From Escherichia coli (GTDB taxonomy: Bacteria > Pseudomonadota > Gammaproteobacteria > Enterobacterales > Enterobacteriaceae): DNA of 64,000 nt. The translations under genes were made by a program, and so were the position numbers. The stretch is taken from assembly GCF_024298765.1 (NCBI RefSeq), contig NZ_CP101211.1. One strand, 5' to 3'. Under the pieces are notes generated by a model. The model was not told where the DNA came from. It made no database searches and saw only the letters and a program-made list of their open reading frames with translations. The number at the start of each line of letters is the position of its first letter. Within the stretch, counting starts at the first letter, position 1. Below are positions 54,716 through 63,725 of the stretch, piece after piece.

Positions 54716-55315
54716 CGCGGCCGTTGGAATTGCACCGGCCGGATACGAATTTAACCGATCCCGTGGCGGGAAGGCTATCAGAGTTGCATGTCCTCATCCC
54801 TCAAGCCCCCTGCCAGGCCCCAACGTGCTGTCAGGCTTCGCCTGATTCCCGATCTGCGCCGATACTTCAGCCGATAACTTTTTGTTTTCTTTTTATTTTC
54901 TTCCCATTTCCTCAAAAATCGCGGGCGGCGTGGACAGGGCACCATTGCCGCATGTGGGGTCTTAATAAGGGCAGGGTGGTCAGTTTTGCTCGATGCCATG
55001 GGTAGGCCCTCCCCTTCATGGGATGAGGACATGCAAGTAAGCTAACTATCTGAAATGACGAAGGTTCATTTGGTGAATGTCGCTTCATATTAATGTTGTG
55101 TCACTTATGATCGTATGTAGCTGGTTGCAAAGAGGAGCGATGAGACAATAAAGTTGTATCGCTAACAAGATTTATGCTGCCACATAGTAACAGCCTAAAA
55201 GTTGTACGCCCTATTTAACAGCTTTTAGGCTGTTAATTTGATATTACAGCTTTTAGGGTGTATGTTTAGGAAACAGCCTGCAAGGTGTATCAGAGGAAAC
55301 TACTGAGGCCAGCTT

Positions 55316-55612
55316 ATGATCAATAATGATTACCCGTTAAACACGCTCAACCAGCTGCGTCCCTTGCTCATTGGTTTTCGCAAGGCGAATGGCCTGACGC
55401 AAAAAGACCTGTCCGAAAGGTTAGGCGTCACTCAACAGACATACTCACGTCTGGAAGCCAACCCTGCCAGTGCGAGCATTGAACGGCTATTCAAGGTGTT
55501 TTCCATCCTGGGCGTAAAAATCAGCTTCTCCTCGGCAACCACCTCTTCAGAGAGGAAGCAGACGGAAGAAATGCTTAAATCAAACTCACCTGCACGACAG
55601 GAGGATTGGTAA
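55316..55612 (+). CDS. hipB: XRE-family HTH antitoxin HipB
   Basis: 98 aa; HTH LSERLGVTQQTYSRLE; immediately upstream of hipA. Confidence 0.7.
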   Translation: MINNDYPLNTLNQLRPLLIGFRKANGLTQKDLSERLGVTQQTYSRLEANPASASIERLFKVFSILGVKISFSSATTSSERKQTEEMLKSNSPARQEDW

Positions 55613-55616
55613 CGAT

Positions 55617-56942
55617 ATGAGCCGGAAACAGCAACGTCTGGTAATTTGGATGAACGGCATCAAAGTCGGGTACTGGGAAAAAAGCAAAGGGGTAGACAGC
55701 TTAGAATACCTTCCTGAATGGGTTGCTGACGAACAGGGAAGGCCGCTGTCATTGTCCCTTCCTTTTACTCCCGGGAACCAGGTCTGGCGTGGAAATGTGG
55801 TACGTGACTATTTTGATAATTTACTGCCGGACAGCGAAGGCATACGCAGACGTCTGGCAATGCGTTACAAGGCCGATAGCCTGGAGCCTTTTGATCTGCT
55901 GACGGAGCTGGGAAAAGACTGCGTGGGCGCGATACAGCTGCTTCATGACGGAGATGAACCCACTGATTTATATTCCGTGAAGTATCACCCGCTTACTGAA
56001 TCAGAAATTGCGGCAACTTTGCGTAATACCACGGAGACATTGCTACCGGGCAGGCCAGAAGATAACGACGACTTACGTTTATCTATTGCCGGTGCTCAGG
56101 AGAAAACAGCCCTACTGTGGCATGAAGATCGGTGGTGTATGCCGGAGGGTAATACACCAACGACGCATATATTCAAGCTACCGCTCGGACTTGTGGGGAA
56201 CATGAAAGCCGACATGAGCTCGTCGGTTGAAAATGAATGGCTCTGCTCGGTACTTCTCGGCCAGTACGGGCTCCCCGTGGCAAGAACGCAGATTGCTCAC
56301 TTTGAAGATCAGAAAGCGCTGGTGGTAGAACGTTTTGACCGAAAATGGTCAGGAGACGGACAATGGATCATTCGTTTACCCCAGGAGGATATGTGTCAGG
56401 CCCTGGGCGTTTCGCCATTACGAAAATATCAGGCGGACGGCGGGCCAGGTATATCGGAAATTATGGAGGTTCTGAGTAATTCAGACCGTGCTGAGCGTGA
56501 CAAAGCGCAGTTTTTTATGACGCAGATAATTTTCTGGATGATGGCCGCAACAGATGGCCACGCTAAAAATTTCAGTATTTCTATTGGGCCACAGGGACGT
56601 TATCACCTTACACCAAACTATGATGTGTTGTCGGCATGGCCGGTGATCGGTCATGGGAACAATCAGATATCCTGGCAGAAGTGCAAACTGGCGATGGCCG
56701 TACGTGGCAGTAGCAACTATTACCAGATATATCGAATACAACGACGCCACTGGATCAGGCATGGTGAGATAACCGGCCTGAGTAAACAGCAGACAGAGGC
56801 GATGATAGAGGAAATCATCGCCAGAACCCCGGGTGTCATTGAACGTGTTAGCGGGCTTCTTCCGGACCAGTTCCCCCAGCAGCTTGCGGAAAGTATTTTT
56901 GATGGAATGAGGCAGCAATGCAGGCGCCTGGCTGAGAAATGA
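55617..56942 (+). CDS. hipA: HipA-family Ser/Thr kinase toxin
   Basis: 441 aa; conserved blocks FDNLLPDS, SIAGAQEKTAL, ERFDR, RLPQEDMCQ, TDGHAKNFS shared with E. coli HipA as recalled. Confidence 0.75.
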   Translation: MSRKQQRLVIWMNGIKVGYWEKSKGVDSLEYLPEWVADEQGRPLSLSLPFTPGNQVWRGNVVRDYFDNLLPDSEGIRRRLAMRYKADSLEPFDLLTELGKDCVGAIQLLHDGDEPTDLYSVKYHPLTESEIAATLRNTTETLLPGRPEDNDDLRLSIAGAQEKTALLWHEDRWCMPEGNTPTTHIFKLPLGLVGNMKADMSSSVENEWLCSVLLGQYGLPVARTQIAHFEDQKALVVERFDRKWSGDGQWIIRLPQEDMCQALGVSPLRKYQADGGPGISEIMEVLSNSDRAERDKAQFFMTQIIFWMMAATDGHAKNFSISIGPQGRYHLTPNYDVLSAWPVIGHGNNQISWQKCKLAMAVRGSSNYYQIYRIQRRHWIRHGEITGLSKQQTEAMIEEIIARTPGVIERVSGLLPDQFPQQLAESIFDGMRQQCRRLAEK

Positions 56943-57002
56943 CAGCCGCAATTTATAGTGTGCATGTTTTCAGAATAGCTGATGTAAGCGTGAGGATTCA
57001 GT

Positions 57003-57209
57003 ATGACTGAAGAACAAAAAAGAATAGAGCGGGCTATTGAGTTGGCTTGTCGTTACGGCGGAACCGATGAAATGCATCATCTGCAATGGGTCGTGGATCA
57101 GATGGTAAGAGAACTTGCTGGAGAACGTTATGCACAGATTGTAGCTGATGCCACCAGCGGAGAAGATGGGCCTGATACTTACAAATGGAGTGTTGGGATC
57201 GCGCCTTAA
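57003..57209 (+). CDS. Small hypothetical protein
   Basis: 68-aa ORF. Confidence 0.25.
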   Translation: MTEEQKRIERAIELACRYGGTDEMHHLQWVVDQMVRELAGERYAQIVADATSGEDGPDTYKWSVGIAP

Positions 57210-57310
57210 CAGCTGTCGGTCTGGGGGTGAAAACGTATTCTTCATTCAGCGAATTCCCAGGCTTCACATTAAGACTAAAGCGGCGGCCGCAGTAACGTAA
57301 GAGAAAATAA

Positions 57311-57721
57311 ATGGCTATTTTAGCAATCATTGCAGTTATCGCCCTGGGTGGGTACGCCTACGGATTTATTAAAACCCGTGAGCTGAGCGCTTTGCGTAAA
57401 GAAATGAAACTATACGTGGATCGCATGGAAGCGGCGGAGCTGGACTTACACGCAATCAGAAGTGTAGCGGAGCACCGGTTGCACGGTGCAGGTAAACAGT
57501 TTGCCGACCTTTACAGCCGTATCGACGGTGCAACTGTGACGCTGACACCCGAAGATCAGCTGTTACTGGCAACGATGCCATTTAATATTCAGGATGTAGA
57601 AGACATCGTAAACGAGCGCGGTCCAAAGACAATTAGCGGCCGTCCATTCTGGGAAGTTGAGCCAGGCCCGCATGATTATGAATATGGCCCGCAATATCCG
57701 TATTTCCCAGACCAGCGCTAG
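57311..57721 (+). CDS. Hypothetical protein with N-terminal transmembrane helix
   Basis: 136 aa; N-terminus MAILAIIAVIALGGYAYGFI. Confidence 0.3.
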   Translation: MAILAIIAVIALGGYAYGFIKTRELSALRKEMKLYVDRMEAAELDLHAIRSVAEHRLHGAGKQFADLYSRIDGATVTLTPEDQLLLATMPFNIQDVEDIVNERGPKTISGRPFWEVEPGPHDYEYGPQYPYFPDQR

Positions 57722-57733
57722 GAAGAGATCAAG

Positions 57734-58549
57734 ATGAGAGAGCCAAGACCACGCCATACCTTGCAGGTCATTCGTGTACCTTCTCTGGAGGTTCAGGACC
57801 TGGGGCTGACCAGCTTTGATAGCTGGCTTGACGAGCACGGGTATGACAAAACGAATGCCAGAAATAACCGTACCATCTGGGCGAGAGAAGGCGGATGGCA
57901 TCTGAAACGTTGCAGAAATCTTGAAACTGGCACGGACGATTTCTGGTTTATCGCTTTCGATGGTAAAGGCGGGAAGATTTACCCGCTGAAAACCCAAAGA
58001 GACTACCGGGCTGCATATCGTAAGCTGGAAGCAGAAGGTTATGCGCCTGCGGTCATCGAGCAAATGACCACAGGCGCAGCATATAACCTGGCCTATCCAC
58101 GTTCCACCCTAAAACAAGCTGAGACGGCCACCAGCGAGCCAATTCGGAAACCTGACGTAGATATCCAGGGTGAGCACTGCGAGCGCGTAGTGACGCAACG
58201 TAGTGGCGTGGCACAGGGTAAATTCAAAGCTCTGCTCATCGAGAATTTCGCAGGCCGTTGTGCGGTAACCGGTTGGGTTAATGGAGGTGTCCTGGATGCG
58301 GCACACATTGAACATGGAACCCGGTACAATCCGTCTAATGGCATCCTGATGACTCCAACAATGCATGCGCTGTTTGATGCCGATCTTATGGGCATAGATC
58401 CGGCCACCCTGACCGTTCATTTTAAGCCAGGCATTGAGGTGGGCGAGCTGTTTGAAGGCCGTAAAATCACACCGCTGGTGTACGATCTGGACTTAGAGCG
58501 GCTGGCCGTACGCTGGGCAGAATACCAGGGCCTTGCTCAGGACCAATGA
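57734..58549 (+). CDS. HNH endonuclease-domain protein
   Basis: 271 aa; C-terminal CAVTG..AAHI..NGILMTPTMHALFD..IDP is an HNH-type motif. Confidence 0.55.
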   Translation: MREPRPRHTLQVIRVPSLEVQDLGLTSFDSWLDEHGYDKTNARNNRTIWAREGGWHLKRCRNLETGTDDFWFIAFDGKGGKIYPLKTQRDYRAAYRKLEAEGYAPAVIEQMTTGAAYNLAYPRSTLKQAETATSEPIRKPDVDIQGEHCERVVTQRSGVAQGKFKALLIENFAGRCAVTGWVNGGVLDAAHIEHGTRYNPSNGILMTPTMHALFDADLMGIDPATLTVHFKPGIEVGELFEGRKITPLVYDLDLERLAVRWAEYQGLAQDQ

Positions 58550-58802
58550 AGGGTGACAGCCAGGTTGTGCCTAAACCTGGCAGTAAAACCTGCATGCCAC
58601 AAACCTTTAAATTCTGACTCAAGAGCCTGGCACAAGATAAAAGCGAAATGAAAAGGTTAAAACCGGTGCACCAGACCTCTTAGGTTTAATACCTGAGCCA
58701 GTATACTGGCAGTCTCAGGTAAGTGGGTATCATACACTTCAGAAATATCCACACCGAGATAACCGCAACAGTTAAAGAGCTAAAAAGGACGGTTTTAATT
58801 TT

Positions 58803-59228
58803 ATGAATAAAACAGCTTTAATTATGATTCTGGGAATCCTCGGATGTGGTAAAGCATTTGCAGCCACTGAATTACAGCTCCAGCAAAAACGCGTTATGCA
58901 TTTCTGTGCCAATGCCAGCCTTCCGTTGTTGATTGCCGGTACAACTTATGCGAATACGTCTGACAATGGACGACCAGAAAAAGAAAGAGTGGCAATCCTG
59001 AAAAATTCAGTTGCAAGCTCGACAGCTTATAAAATGGCATCTCCCGGAGTTCAGATGGCCATGATGAGCGTGGTGGAAGATATTGCCGATCCGAAAGAAT
59101 TAGCTCTACATCAAAAAGAAGTTAGACGTCTTGGGGCTAGTTATCTTTCCGACAGCGGTGTTTCATGGGCTTCAAAAACTGTTTCACCATTTACAGCCTG
59201 GTGTAACTTTAACCGTTTAGAAAGTTAA
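58803..59228 (+). CDS. Hypothetical secreted protein
   Basis: 141 aa; signal peptide MNKTALIMILGILGCGKAFA. Confidence 0.35.
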   Translation: MNKTALIMILGILGCGKAFAATELQLQQKRVMHFCANASLPLLIAGTTYANTSDNGRPEKERVAILKNSVASSTAYKMASPGVQMAMMSVVEDIADPKELALHQKEVRRLGASYLSDSGVSWASKTVSPFTAWCNFNRLES

Positions 59229-59776
59229 GGCTGGCAAGGCGGTTTCTGTTCAGGAAAGTTACTTTCCGTGCGGGGACCGTAAGATACAGATAAAGCTTAA
59301 GGCCTTTGAATTTTTGGAAAGCATTTGAAAATTTCATTGCGCTTGTCTGATATGAAACAGCCCCTGCATTTCTGCAAAGGCTGAAAGAGTGTGTACGGAC
59401 TTTGGAAGGAGTGATGATATACGCCTGAGCCATCCCATCACCGCAGACAGGGTAATTAACCCTGACTAAAGCTTTCACCTATTCCGTCGCTCGCAAGCGG
59501 CTTTCGCACACTAACGAAGGTATGGCCTTTCGTCGGTGTTAAATTTTTCAAACTTTGCTTACTTTGTCAAGGAAGGTGACCGCAGTAGCAGGCACAACTA
59601 CTTTAATCTGTATGAATAATAAGGTAGAACCGGCCAGTGAATGAATGCTTACCCTGAAATCAGGCGGACAACCTTCAGGAATATTGATAGCAAGACTGAA
59701 TCTCTCGCTGCGGCGATAAACATTTCGCCATAACCCTGAACGAGAGTGGTTCATCCATCATATACAGGAGCGTTAC

Positions 59777-60085
59777 ATGCGCAAATTTAAGTACATAATC
59801 TGTCACCAGTGCGAAGGCCACGGGACCATGGAAAACCCGGCCTTTGAAAATGGATTCACCCAATCAGAAATGGCTGAGTGGGAGCCAGAAATGCGTGAAA
59901 AGTATTTTGCCGGAGCATTTGATGTTCGCTGTAACGTTTGTGCCGGTGACGGTAAGCTCAGCGTACCAAACGTAGCGGCTATGTCTTTTTCAGAACGACG
60001 GGTTCTGGCAGCACGGCGGCGTGATGAGCGTCTTCAGGCTGCTGATGAACGGCTGTCCCGCCAGGAACGAGCAATGGGGTACTGA
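59777..60085 (+). CDS. Hypothetical Zn-ribbon protein
   Basis: 102 aa; CHQCEGHG .. CNVCAGDG paired Cys motifs. Confidence 0.3.
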   Translation: MRKFKYIICHQCEGHGTMENPAFENGFTQSEMAEWEPEMREKYFAGAFDVRCNVCAGDGKLSVPNVAAMSFSERRVLAARRRDERLQAADERLSRQERAMGY

Positions 60086-60100
60086 GGTGCTACAGCAAAG

Positions 60101-60958
60101 ATGAAAATGACGAAGCCAAAACCGGTAAGCCGGATGAAAAGACCGTTTATTAGTGAGCTTGCAGAGCTGGGTTTATCGGGTGAAATTCTTTCAATTCGAA
60201 CTGACGGCATGCAGGGGACGCTCATACCCGATCTTACCGCAGGGGTGAGTGAAGCAGGCCGTGTGAAAACCGGCAACTGGGTAATCTCTGACAAGAGAAC
60301 CTTCGACCATGTCGTTCTGTGTGTTGAAAGACAAGATGAGAACCATGATGTGTACGTAGGTAAATTCATCCAGTTACATGTAGCCGCTAATAAGAGCCTT
60401 AAGATCGTCGAAATGGGCGATGTGAAACTGGTGGCCATAACCAGCTCGATTCCTACCACTTTTAATGGTGGGATAAAGAGATACAAAGGGGTTACGTATG
60501 TGTCACTTTCCCAAACAGCTCAAACCACTATCGACTTCCCGAAGCGTATCTACAAAGAGGGCCAGGAATGTACTTCTGTCACCAGTCCTGACCAAGGTCC
60601 TTTCGCCCGGGATGTTAGGTTGAATTGCTACGGGCGATGTGTTGTCACCGGCGTAAGGTCCCCCTGGCGTACTGAGGCCGCGCACTTAACGCCACGTCAT
60701 GAAGAAGGCATTCCCGACGTAACGAACGGAATTTTACTTCGCCGTGATATCCATACACTGTTCGACAATGACCATTGCGCCATAAACCCTGACACTATGA
60801 AAATTTACTTCAGCCGGGAGGCCCGGGAGTTGGATGATGATCTCCTGAAATGGCATGGGAATGAGATAGAGACGACACGCATGCAGGTTCCGGTTAACAT
60901 CGAAAACCTTCGGATACGATGGCAAAAATTTAAGGCTAAGGATCGTCAGCGTAAATAA
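60101..60958 (+). CDS. HNH endonuclease-domain protein (paralog of the 57734 gene in the HNH region)
   Basis: 285 aa; CVVTG..AAHL..NGILLRRDIHTLFD..INP matches the same HNH-type motif with a different N-terminal domain. Confidence 0.55.
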   Translation: MKMTKPKPVSRMKRPFISELAELGLSGEILSIRTDGMQGTLIPDLTAGVSEAGRVKTGNWVISDKRTFDHVVLCVERQDENHDVYVGKFIQLHVAANKSLKIVEMGDVKLVAITSSIPTTFNGGIKRYKGVTYVSLSQTAQTTIDFPKRIYKEGQECTSVTSPDQGPFARDVRLNCYGRCVVTGVRSPWRTEAAHLTPRHEEGIPDVTNGILLRRDIHTLFDNDHCAINPDTMKIYFSREARELDDDLLKWHGNEIETTRMQVPVNIENLRIRWQKFKAKDRQRK

Positions 60959-61019
60959 AGCCATAAGCTGAACCACGGCGAGGATTAGTCTTGTTCACTA
61001 AATGACAGCGAGAGATTAA

Positions 61020-61223
61020 ATGCAAACCCAAAAAGAAATTACAGTTGGCCAGATCTGGGAAGAAGTGGATCCAAGACTGATCCGGAAAGTGCGGGTTGTT
61101 GAGGTGGCCTCGTTAGAAGGGCCCAAAGGCATCCTTATCGAAAACGTGGAGTCTGGTCGTAAGAACTGGGCGTCGTCATCCCGCTTTAATGGAAAGCGTG
61201 GAGGGTATCGTCTTATTTCCTGA
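61020..61223 (+). CDS. Small hypothetical protein
   Basis: 67-aa ORF. Confidence 0.2.
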   Translation: MQTQKEITVGQIWEEVDPRLIRKVRVVEVASLEGPKGILIENVESGRKNWASSSRFNGKRGGYRLIS

Positions 61224-61309
61224 CGGTTTTGCCAATATGGGAAACTGAAGAGGTTGAAACCATCCCGGTGAGGGAGCATATCTGGTAAAGAAGAGTCTTT
61301 AAAAAGGTT

Positions 61310-61564: not shown

Positions 61565-61848
61565 TTAGATCAGGAAATCATCAAGACTTTTACCGGCTGC
61601 AATTTGTTCTGCCAGAGCTTTGGGGGTACGGCCCTGTCCAGTCCACGTTTTTGTTTCGCCATTTTCATCAGTAAATGAGTATTTGGCCGGGCGTGGTCCA
61701 CGGCTTTTCTTGGTAGCCGTAGATTTGGCCTGGAATGAGCCAAGCAGCTCTTCCGGGTTGATACCATCTTCTTCCATTAACTTACGCAGGGCGTCAAGTT
61801 TCTCCTGACGAGCTTGCAGTTCGGCAGCTTTGGATGATTCTTCCTGAC
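61565..61848 (-). pseudogene. hns: H-NS-family nucleoid protein gene, 5' end truncated by IS26
   Basis: Encodes the H-NS C-terminal DNA-binding region ([33 protein letters not shown]); reading frame runs into the IS26 inverted repeat at 61849, N-terminal domain absent. Confidence 0.7.
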
Positions 61849-62668
61849 GGCACTGTTGCAAATAGTCGGTGGTGATAAACTTATCATCCCCTTTTGCTGA
61901 TGGAGCTGCACATGAACCCATTCAAAGGCCGGCATTTTCAGCGTGACATCATTCTGTGGGCCGTACGCTGGTACTGCAAATACGGCATCAGTTACCGTGA
62001 GCTGCAGGAGATGCTGGCTGAACGCGGAGTGAATGTCGATCACTCCACGATTTACCGCTGGGTTCAGCGTTATGCGCCTGAAATGGAAAAACGGCTGCGC
62101 TGGTACTGGCGTAACCCTTCCGATCTTTGCCCGTGGCACATGGATGAAACCTACGTGAAGGTCAATGGCCGCTGGGCGTATCTGTACCGGGCCGTCGACA
62201 GCCGGGGCCGCACTGTCGATTTTTATCTCTCCTCCCGTCGTAACAGCAAAGCTGCATACCGGTTTCTGGGTAAAATCCTCAACAACGTGAAGAAGTGGCA
62301 GATCCCGCGATTCATCAACACGGATAAAGCGCCCGCCTATGGTCGCGCGCTTGCTCTGCTCAAACGCGAAGGCCGGTGCCCGTCTGACGTTGAACACCGA
62401 CAGATTAAGTACCGGAACAACGTGATTGAATGCGATCATGGCAAACTGAAACGGATAATCGGCGCCACGCTGGGATTTAAATCCATGAAGACGGCTTACG
62501 CCACCATCAAAGGTATTGAGGTGATGCGTGCACTACGCAAAGGCCAGGCCTCAGCATTTTATTATGGTGATCCCCTGGGCGAAATGCGCCTGGTAAGCAG
62601 AGTTTTTGAAATGTAAGGCCTTTGAATAAGACAAAAGGCTGCCTCATCGCTAACTTTGCAACAGTGCC
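61849..62668 (+). mobile_element. IS26 (IS6 family), 820 bp
   Basis: 14-bp terminal inverted repeats GGCACTGTTGCAAA / TTTGCAACAGTGCC at both ends; tnp26 inside. Confidence 0.9.
61912..62616 (+). CDS. tnpA: IS26 transposase Tnp26
   Basis: 234 aa from [21 protein letters not shown], matching IS26 transposase as recalled. Confidence 0.9.
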
Positions 62669-62909: not shown

Positions 62910-63725
62910 TCAGAAAAACTCATCGAGCATCAAATGAAACTGCAATTTATTCATATCAGGATTATCAATACCATATTTTTGAAAAAGCCGTTTCTGTAAT
63001 GAAGGAGAAAATTCACCGAGGCAGTTCCATAGGATGGCAAGATCCTGGTATCGGTCTGCGATTCCGACTCGTCCAACATCAATACAACCTATTAATTTCC
63101 CCTCGTCAAAAATAAGGTTATCAAGTGAGAAATCACCATGAGTGACGACTGAATCCGGTGAGAATGGCAAAAGCTTATGCATTTCTTTCCAGACTTGTTC
63201 AACAGGCCAGCCATTACGCTCGTCATCAAAATCACTCGCATCAACCAAACCGTTATTCATTCGTGATTGCGCCTGAGCGAGACGAAATACGCGATCGCTG
63301 TTAAAAGGACAATTACTAACAGGAATCGAATGCAACCGGCGCAGGAACGCTGCCAGCGCATCAACAATATTTTCACCTGAATCAGGATATTCTTCTAATA
63401 CCTGGAATGCTGTTTTCCCGGGGAGCGCAGTGGTGAGTAACCATGCATCATCAGGAGTACGGATAAAATGCTTGATGGTCGGAAGAGGCATAAATGCCGT
63501 CAGCCAGTTTAGTCTGACCATCTCATCTGTAACATCATTGGCAACGCTACCTTTGCCATGTTTCAGAAACAACTCTGGCGCATCGGGCTTCCCATACAAT
63601 CGATAGATTGTCGCACCTGATTGCCCGACATTATCGCGAGCCCATTTATACCCATATAAATCAGCATCCAGGTTGGAATTTAATCGCGGCCTCGAGCAAG
63701 ACGTTTCCCGTTGAATATGGCTCAT
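62910..63725 (-). CDS. aph(3')-I: Aminoglycoside 3'-phosphotransferase APH(3')-I (kanamycin/neomycin resistance)
   Basis: 271 aa MSHIQRETSCSRPRLNS..HGDFSLDNLIFDEGKLIGCIDVGRVGIADRYQDLAILWNCLGEFSP matches APH(3')-Ia-type enzyme as recalled. Confidence 0.9.
   Translation of the reverse strand: MSHIQRETSCSRPRLNSNLDADLYGYKWARDNVGQSGATIYRLYGKPDAPELFLKHGKGSVANDVTDEMVRLNWLTAFMPLPTIKHFIRTPDDAWLLTTALPGKTAFQVLEEYPDSGENIVDALAAFLRRLHSIPVSNCPFNSDRVFRLAQAQSRMNNGLVDASDFDDERNGWPVEQVWKEMHKLLPFSPDSVVTHGDFSLDNLIFDEGKLIGCIDVGRVGIADRYQDLAILWNCLGEFSPSLQKRLFQKYGIDNPDMNKLQFHLMLDEFF

Follow-up and report, generated by a model that had tools for sequence, protein, structure and literature searches.

We examined a 64,000-nucleotide stretch of Escherichia coli DNA (contig NZ_CP101211.1; hereafter, the window), which is backbone of a large IncHI2 resistance plasmid. 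Our subject is a pair of genes within it, here called HNH-A and HNH-B, each of which carries in RefSeq the label "HNH endonuclease signature motif containing protein" and nothing more. On balance, we think it probable that these are two separate single-polypeptide nucleases with the nucleoside triphosphate-independent, modification-dependent type IV architecture of the TagI/VcaM4I class, and that their targets would be DNA modifications which their hosts do not make. Each protein joins a C-terminal HNH_2 nuclease domain, whose catalytic residues are intact, to an N-terminal domain (N-domain) of its own. HNH-A is under purifying selection, the pairing of the two genes is conserved on IncHI plasmids, and the pair is accompanied by neither a methyltransferase gene nor a conserved partner gene. 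The class itself and the HNH endonuclease annotation are already known; of note are the conserved pair on IncHI1 and IncHI2 plasmids and a putative sensor domain that matches nothing known. Full-text literature searches returned no publication on HNH-A or HNH-B and no described phenotype.

One nuclease domain behind two unlike N-domains

An earlier note on this DNA had reported that the open reading frames (ORFs) starting at 57734 and 60101 share a C-terminal HNH motif (C.VTG..AAH..NGIL..H.LFD); this is confirmed, the ORFs lie at the positions given in the note, and the motif includes the catalytic residues. Both proteins match Pfam HNH_2 (PF13391) above its gathering score of 21 bits (HNH-A, 30.6 bits, E=3.2e-7; HNH-B, 47.3 bits, E=1.8e-12), and BLASTP aligns the two at 31% identity across the C-terminal 134 residues (E=3e-12). 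Judged on sequence, the likeness of these halves is far beyond chance. When the two families were aligned (33 sequences for HNH-A and 17 for HNH-B), both alignments showed one signature, Q..F(R)...C.(V/I)TG...A(A)H...NG(I/L)L...H.LFD; H191, N202, H211, and D215 of HNH-A and H195, N209, H218, and D222 of HNH-B are invariant or nearly so, and the catalytic residues are unchanged in orthologs down to ~41% identity. Each protein thereby has the general-base His, the structural Asn, the metal-ligand His/Asp, and the second acidic ligand of an HNH_2 nuclease. The earlier note had named two findings that would speak against it, namely missing catalytic residues and N-domains of a housekeeping kind; the H, N, H, and Asp are intact in both families, and neither N-domain matches a housekeeping protein.

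Searches of the PDB with the family profiles returned one significant solved protein, VcaM4I (6yex; E=2.9e-11 for HNH-A and 1.2e-8 for HNH-B), which was reached by these profiles only, single-sequence searches of the PDB with HNH-A and HNH-B having returned nothing. The active site of VcaM4I has been assigned to H224, N241, D250, and D254 (PMC7897488), and the plasmid residues align on H224 as the general base, N241 as the structural Asn, and D250/D254 as the metal ligands. In place of D250, both HNH-A (H211) and HNH-B (H218) have the canonical His at the second metal-ligand position. Both proteins look catalytically competent. A scan of PADLOC-DB gave only partial matches to generic "HNH" models (PDLC04132, E=2.2e-8 and 7e-4; PDLC03546, E=0.0034), which do not permit a system to be assigned.

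The same half of HNH-A has counterparts in phages. In the Salmonella phage 7-11 group (~86.6-87.2 kb; matches H91-H93), the C-terminal half of a protein is 32-37% identical to the linker plus HNH half of HNH-A, and one record of the group names this protein "ParB-like partition protein." PHROG 23050, 20585, and 21425, all of unknown function, match the same region.

The N-terminal halves are as unrelated as the earlier note had described them: BLASTP finds no similarity there, and profile-profile comparison of the two N-domains (hhalign) gives a probability of 0.45%. A (D/E)LGL(T/S) motif near residue 22, common to both N-domains, was considered as a possible link and is not significant by hhalign.

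For HNH-B, an AlphaFold2 model built from the family alignment (mean predicted local distance difference test score [pLDDT], 74; nuclease core, 80-94; N-domain, ~65-86; linker 139-163, <50) gave full-length Foldseek alignments with VcaM4I (E=4e-5) and TagI (E=2.5e-4). The Foldseek list also includes Lon N-domains, which are likewise PUA-like. From the model, the N-domain of HNH-B is predicted to be a PUA-like (EVE/YTH/ASCH-type) barrel, and only generically so. Such a barrel is the usual reader of modified bases, which flips the base out and reads it. The profile of this N-domain, searched against 5.8 billion proteins, found only its own small enterobacterial family (fragments); a Pfam scan of every N-domain member at E<=10 matched no family, PUA, EVE, and ASCH included; and the profiles of both N-domains found no match in the PDB. 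HNH-B is probably a new, uncharacterized member of the PUA-like-HNH type IV kind, itself an already known kind.

The corresponding model of HNH-A has a mean pLDDT of 63 (nuclease core, good; N-domain, 48-73; linker 110-156, <50), and its N-domain matched no fold or family, whether by profile against the PDB or by structure comparison. An exhaustive hidden Markov model search with this N-domain over 1.84 billion representative proteins returned 20 at E<=0.001, 12 of these at E<=1e-30; the strong matches are either short fragments of the same family or, in all full-length proteins, the domain directly upstream of HNH_2. Because its N-domain is an orphan that always stands upstream of HNH_2, HNH-A is an orphan-sensor variant of the sensor-HNH nuclease. 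The description "domain-swapped," used in the earlier note, is fair for the HNH_2 family overall; the N-domain of HNH-A, however, is found only with HNH_2. Fusion of the sensor to other nuclease types, as a sign of modularity, likewise was unusable as evidence, given that the domain occurs only with HNH_2 or as fragments. Nine aromatic residues of the N-domain are invariant (W31, Y37, W49, W55, W71, Y91, Y95, Y117, and Y121), an abundance that would be compatible with a base-binding pocket but is no proof of one. Among the relatives, P0161 (426 amino acids [aa]) combines an HNH-A-type N-domain with two tandem HNH_2 domains, and P0154 and P0158-P0160 (464-540 aa) carry a Lys-rich, probably disordered N-terminal extension of 180-260 residues.

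Among solved structures, the modification-dependent type IV endonucleases TagI and VcaM4I stand closest to both HNH-A and HNH-B; the C-terminal HNH, with a linker helix before it, is structurally closest to members of this class. The PUA-HNH class is defined by an N-domain of the PUA superfamily, which HNH-A does not show, and this weighs against the modification-dependent assignment. Among the closest known systems is the VcaM4I/TspA15I group (EVE-HNH type IV; PDB 6yex), of which VcaM4I prefers 5-hydroxymethylcytosine (5hmC) (PMC7897488, PMC6765204). In contrast to VcaM4I, the two plasmid proteins have N-domains without sequence similarity to EVE; that of HNH-B is a barrel only generically PUA-like, and that of HNH-A is not recognizably PUA. 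In TagI and ScoA3IV (Sco5333), which are SRA-HNH type IV enzymes (PDB 6ghs), the reader is an SRA domain for 5-methylcytosine or 5hmC. TagI is toxic in Dcm+ E. coli, as are SRA-HNH enzymes reading Dcm sites in such hosts (PMC6765204). The plasmids carrying HNH-A and HNH-B, however, thrive in Dcm+ hosts, and therefore the two proteins cannot share the specificity of TagI at comparable activity. EcoKMcrA (PDB 6ghc) is a more distant HNH match than TagI or VcaM4I, and its HNH part alone aligns; its NEco domain resembles neither N-domain but is likewise family specific and, in this regard, sets a precedent for the orphan sensor of HNH-A. The match to the phosphorothioate-dependent SBD-HNH enzymes ScoMcrA and SprMcrA (NF045808; PDB 5zmm) is confined to the nuclease part. 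A sulfur-binding (phosphorothioate) enzyme was rejected, as NF045808 scored 13.7 and 17.2 bits against a cutoff of 180 bits, on the HNH part only, with no sign of a sulfur-binding domain.

Conservation of the pair across plasmid lineages

The 6.3-kb region 55000-61300 matched 1,199 plasmid records, and in 464 of the 1,199 a single match at 95-100% identity took in at least 80% of the region. The plasmids matched are mostly large and conjugative, their hosts are chiefly Escherichia, Salmonella, and Enterobacter, and a representative was typed as IncHI2A, MOBH, MPF_F. Comparison loci were taken from plasmids and other contigs (coded L001-L023), and among them the order HNH-A, HNH-B, hns was seen again in IncHI1 and three further sampled contig lineages. 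IncHI1 plasmids (L017, typed IncHI1A, and L011-L014) have HNH-A (79% identity) and HNH-B (55%) side by side, upstream of an opposite-strand hns. In L015, L016, and L023, HNH-A (80%) and HNH-B (53%) are both full-length, while L021 and L022 run from hipB-hipA to HNH-A (271 aa), two unrelated small genes, HNH-B (73%), and hns. L006 has HNH-B (55%) only, adjoining hns and behind a Tn3-family transposase. The arrangement kept across five plasmid or contig lineages comprises HNH-A, HNH-B, and hns only, with hipBA present in two of the five.

Neighboring genes were compared by all-against-all BLAST with five other loci (L002, L006, L008, L011, and L015). Shared genes in this comparison are limited to the orf143/130 gene, HNH-A, HNH-B, and hns, and a conserved partner gene was thereby rejected; the 389-aa and 401-aa upstream genes of some loci, considered as a shared partner, are mutually unrelated. 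With no methyltransferase gene around them in the window, no conserved partner, and solitary homologs elsewhere, on chromosomes or integrative elements, HNH-A and HNH-B have the stand-alone character of type IV genes. One solitary relative of HNH-A (42%) lies between a helix-turn-helix gene and an integrase, beside Lamassu-like genes, and a solitary relative of HNH-B (46%) lies on a Leclercia chromosome. Outside IncHI, relatives of HNH-A are found near Lamassu-like conflict genes in L002 (8661-12306; CTD7/MC3/LmuB_C) and in L019 (1-2134; AAA_23/MC5/CTD9). The surroundings of these two loci, conflict genes together with an integrase, are a defense-island type of context.

Between IncHI2 and IncHI1-type orthologs, the ratio of nonsynonymous to synonymous substitution rates (dN/dS) of HNH-A is 0.07-0.09 in both halves of the protein, at a dS of ~1.8 that is near saturation; HNH-B orthologs are too diverged for a dS estimate. 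Single copies are nonetheless clearly often lost. Many IncHI2 records match HNH-A in part (53% of its length, in two matches; H51-H54), and many match HNH-B in part (45% of its length at 100% identity, the record mostly containing a second match; H75-H80). On plasmids that are otherwise near identical, such partial matches look like insertion sequence disruptions or deletions, which suggests frequent inactivation, and we take the partial copies as signs of dispensability. In IncHI1-type plasmids (L011-L014, 5001-5711; L017, 7379-8089), HNH-B has 236 aa and is without its first ~70 residues. This form, which is very common (2,419 blocks of the collection), lacks roughly half of the barrel predicted to be the reader.

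A 41% relative of HNH-B (L020, 5001-5855) lies 148 nucleotides downstream of the terF-like vWA gene that ends a diverged terZABCDE operon, and in the window HNH-B lies ~7.7 kb downstream of the end of the ter operon. A functional tie between nuclease and ter operon was considered and rejected; because no ter genes lie nearby in IncHI1, L006, or the chromosomal locus, shared ancestry fits better. The classical phage-inhibition phenotype of R478 is ascribed to ter genes (Whelan 1995, as cited in PMC11058233) and is neutral for HNH-A and HNH-B.

Possible mode of action and alternative explanations

In the mode of action that we envisage, each protein runs from a putative N-terminal sensor, through a linker with a helix ending in a GQxxFR-type motif, to a C-terminal HNH_2 nuclease of the beta-beta-alpha-metal type. 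The N-domain would bind some feature of invading DNA; in HNH-B, this most likely would be a flipped modified base held in a PUA-type pocket, and in HNH-A the presumed sensor is the orphan domain, rich in aromatic residues and without a fold match. Like those of VcaM4I and TagI, the HNH domains would then dimerize and make double-strand breaks near the site recognized by the sensor. The plasmid hosts are Dam+ Dcm+ enterobacteria, in which Dcm-reading SRA-HNH enzymes are toxic; for these two reasons, we infer that the nucleases act on DNA modifications that enterobacteria do not make. These may be hypermodified bases of phages or, on DNA entering the cell, methylation patterns of foreign origin. 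Two different sensors would provide the IncHI backbone with two specificities. More speculatively, and this we hold to be possible but doubtful, the N-domain of HNH-A (~100 residues, aromatic rich, found only on mobile elements of enterobacteria, and in every case joined to HNH_2) is an unrecognized reader of DNA modification or another kind of invader sensor, which together with HNH-B gives IncHI1 and IncHI2 plasmids a two-specificity restriction barrier against hypermodified phages or foreign-methylated plasmids.

An alternative, which we think unlikely, is that the N-domains sense DNA sequence, DNA structure, or a protein partner and that the nucleases serve plasmid biology, such as attack on competing plasmids, DNA processing at establishment or after conjugation, recombination, or repair. 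A sensor of this kind is possible above all for HNH-A, whose N-domain is unlike any known modification reader, and some proteins in the PUA-HNH screen of Lutz et al. were only nicking or weakly active (PMC6765204); the nearest structural relatives, however, are all modification dependent. Similarly, a role in plasmid biology would suit genes that are syntenic in the IncHI1 and IncHI2 backbones and adjoin the nucleoid-protein gene hns, but relatives outside plasmids lie beside integrases and defense genes, and genes that are so frequently partial in otherwise intact conjugative plasmids do not have the look of a core plasmid function. The same partial genes, together with the N-terminal truncation of HNH-B in IncHI1 and the lack of a phenotype in the literature searched, might instead be read as decay, with the HNH genes (once homing or selfish genes, for example) now carried without a function by a plasmid backbone that is itself successful. 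We find this the most improbable of explanations, in view of the low dN/dS of HNH-A (with its dS near saturation), the invariance of the catalytic residues to ~41% identity, and the retention of the full-length pair in several diverged lineages; moreover, the genes do not lie in intron, intein, or phage surroundings, and theirs is not a homing-type domain.

Two further explanations turn on the neighboring genes. It is improbable that hipBA, the small proteins, and both nucleases make up one multigene defense or exclusion system, in which the nucleases are regulated or set off by the kinase toxin together with the small proteins. The nine genes do share a strand and are separated by short gaps (orf136 ends 12 nucleotides before HNH-A, and orf102 ends 15 nucleotides before HNH-B), and hipBA adjoins HNH-A in a second lineage, L021. 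Yet the five small ORFs are without homologs in L011 (IncHI1 type), L015, and L006, and hipBA is missing from IncHI1, L015, and L023; in addition, stand-alone genes are known in both nuclease families, and TagI and VcaM4I act as single proteins (PMC7897488, PMC6765204). The defense or exclusion cluster put forward in the earlier note therefore survives in part: its nearest characterized relatives, TagI and VcaM4I, are defense enzymes, but a single cluster with hipBA, orf141, and orf102 is not supported, given that the neighbors are not conserved and that relatives are solitary. It is improbable, too, that the HNH proteins are DNase toxins, each restrained by an adjacent small protein acting as immunity factor or antitoxin (HNH-A by orf136 and HNH-B by orf102), with the pairs forming addiction or contact-independent toxin modules. 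A small ORF closely precedes each nuclease in the window, and the isolated HNH domain of VcaM4I is a toxic, nonspecific nuclease (PMC7897488). In L006, L011, L015, and L021, however, unrelated genes, or no genes at all, take the place of the upstream small ORFs, and scans of Pfam, NCBIfam, and PADLOC matched neither nuclease to a toxin family. The nucleases also have a large N-domain and a linker helix of their own; these elements are auto-inhibitory in VcaM4I and may be so here.

The two genes sit on a plasmid backbone that is among the clinically most important. In Salmonella, E. coli, and Enterobacter, resistance to multiple drugs, colistin, and heavy metals has major carriers in the IncHI2 and IncHI1 plasmids. 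If HNH-A and HNH-B are active type IV-like enzymes, then the plasmid would change which phages infect its host, including therapeutic T-even-like phages with modified DNA, and would alter the entry of foreign DNA, both protecting the host and excluding rivals. Were the two-specificity barrier real, it would shape phage susceptibility and plasmid competition in hosts with mcr-1-type and other multidrug-resistance IncHI plasmids, and the sensor of HNH-A would be a new modified-DNA-binding module and a possible epigenetic tool enzyme, which was the motive of the published PUA-HNH screens. If the proteins are inactive or do not depend on modification, they are merely two more uncharacterized "HNH endonuclease" annotations.

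Neighboring genes and the remainder of the window

Along the window, the Tra2 genes trhU, trhN, and trhI are followed by hha, the tellurite cluster (terW...terZABCDE plus a terF-like vWA gene), the nuclease region, and an IS26/aph(3')-Ia insertion, such that the region of interest has the ter cluster on one side and the plasmid hns on the other. All nine ORFs in 55.3-61.2 kb are on the plus strand, and the H-NS-family gene, on the minus strand, comes next (Table 1).

Table 1. Features of the nuclease region and its downstream flank (positions in the window; domain limits in residues)
Feature	Position	Strand	Length	Remarks
hipB	55316-55612	+		HTH_3, E=4.5e-15
hipA	55617-56942	+		HipA_C, E=3.6e-51; Couple_hipA, E=3.7e-21
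orf68	57003-57209	+
orf136	57311-57721	+		N-terminal hydrophobic helix; lineage specific
HNH-A	57734-58549	+	271 aa	N-domain, ~15-110; linker, 110-156; QxxF-motif helix, 158-171; HNH_2 domain with H191, N202, H211, D215
orf141	58803-59228	+		Between the two nucleases; lineage specific
orf102	59777-60085	+
HNH-B	60101-60958	+	285 aa	PUA-like beta-barrel (predicted), ~20-136; linker, 139-163; helix, 166-175; HNH_2 domain with H195, N209, H218, D222
orf67	61020-61223	+
Plasmid H-NS-family gene (remnant)	61565-61848	-		Histone_HNS and partial Histone_HNS_N matches; 5' end removed by IS26
IS26-flanked resistance segment	61849-64000			Edge of conserved backbone
IS26	61849-62668			Inverted repeat GGCACTGTTGCAAA begins at 61849
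aph(3')-Ia	62910-63725	-		Inside IS26-flanked segment
Second IS26 end	63849

The toxin-antitoxin genes that the earlier note had placed next door are borne out by their HTH_3, Couple_hipA, and HipA_C matches. The hipB-hipA genes are a type II pair that adjoins the nucleases but is probably independent of them; hipBA lies next to HNH-A in IncHI2 and L021 and is absent from IncHI1 L017, L011, L015, and L023. Most plausibly, it is a plasmid-maintenance module.

The secreted protein and the small Zn-ribbon protein of the earlier note correspond to orf141 and orf102. The N-terminus of orf141, MNKTALIMILGILGCGKAFAA, reads as signal peptide or lipoprotein-like, and the protein is predicted to be exported or lipoprotein-like. 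No family was matched by orf136 or orf141 in the Pfam, NCBIfam, and PADLOC scans. The product of orf102 contains a pair of DnaJ-type zinc-finger motifs (CxxCxGxG) and ends in a helix rich in Arg; its match to DnaJ_CXXCXGXG is weak (E=0.0013, under the Pfam cutoff), and it has no confident family. Among the loci examined, orf102 is confined to the IncHI2 lineage, and the gene in its position in L006 (86 aa) is unrelated. In the loci compared by BLAST, none of orf68, orf136, orf141, orf102, and orf67 has a homolog; for orf136 and orf102 this covers L002, L006, L008, L011, and L015, and the neighbors in L021 are different again.

An Rfam scan of the whole window found no RNA family, and a promoter and terminator scan gave counts no higher than in shuffled sequence and was uninformative. 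Between orf141 and orf102 lie 550 bp without an annotated gene (59229-59776), likewise without an Rfam match; a strong hairpin followed by a T-run is found there on the minus strand (59383-59358).

The downstream convergent neighbor of the HNH pair, hns, is kept in all plasmid lineages examined. In the window, an apparent 118-aa hns ORF (61565-61921, minus strand) takes its first ~24 codons from IS26, and the H-NS N-domain model is matched at 38-78 only; the IncHI1 H-NS relatives have 134 aa. The junction between hns and IS26 is identical in plasmid NZ_CP028537.1 (L001).

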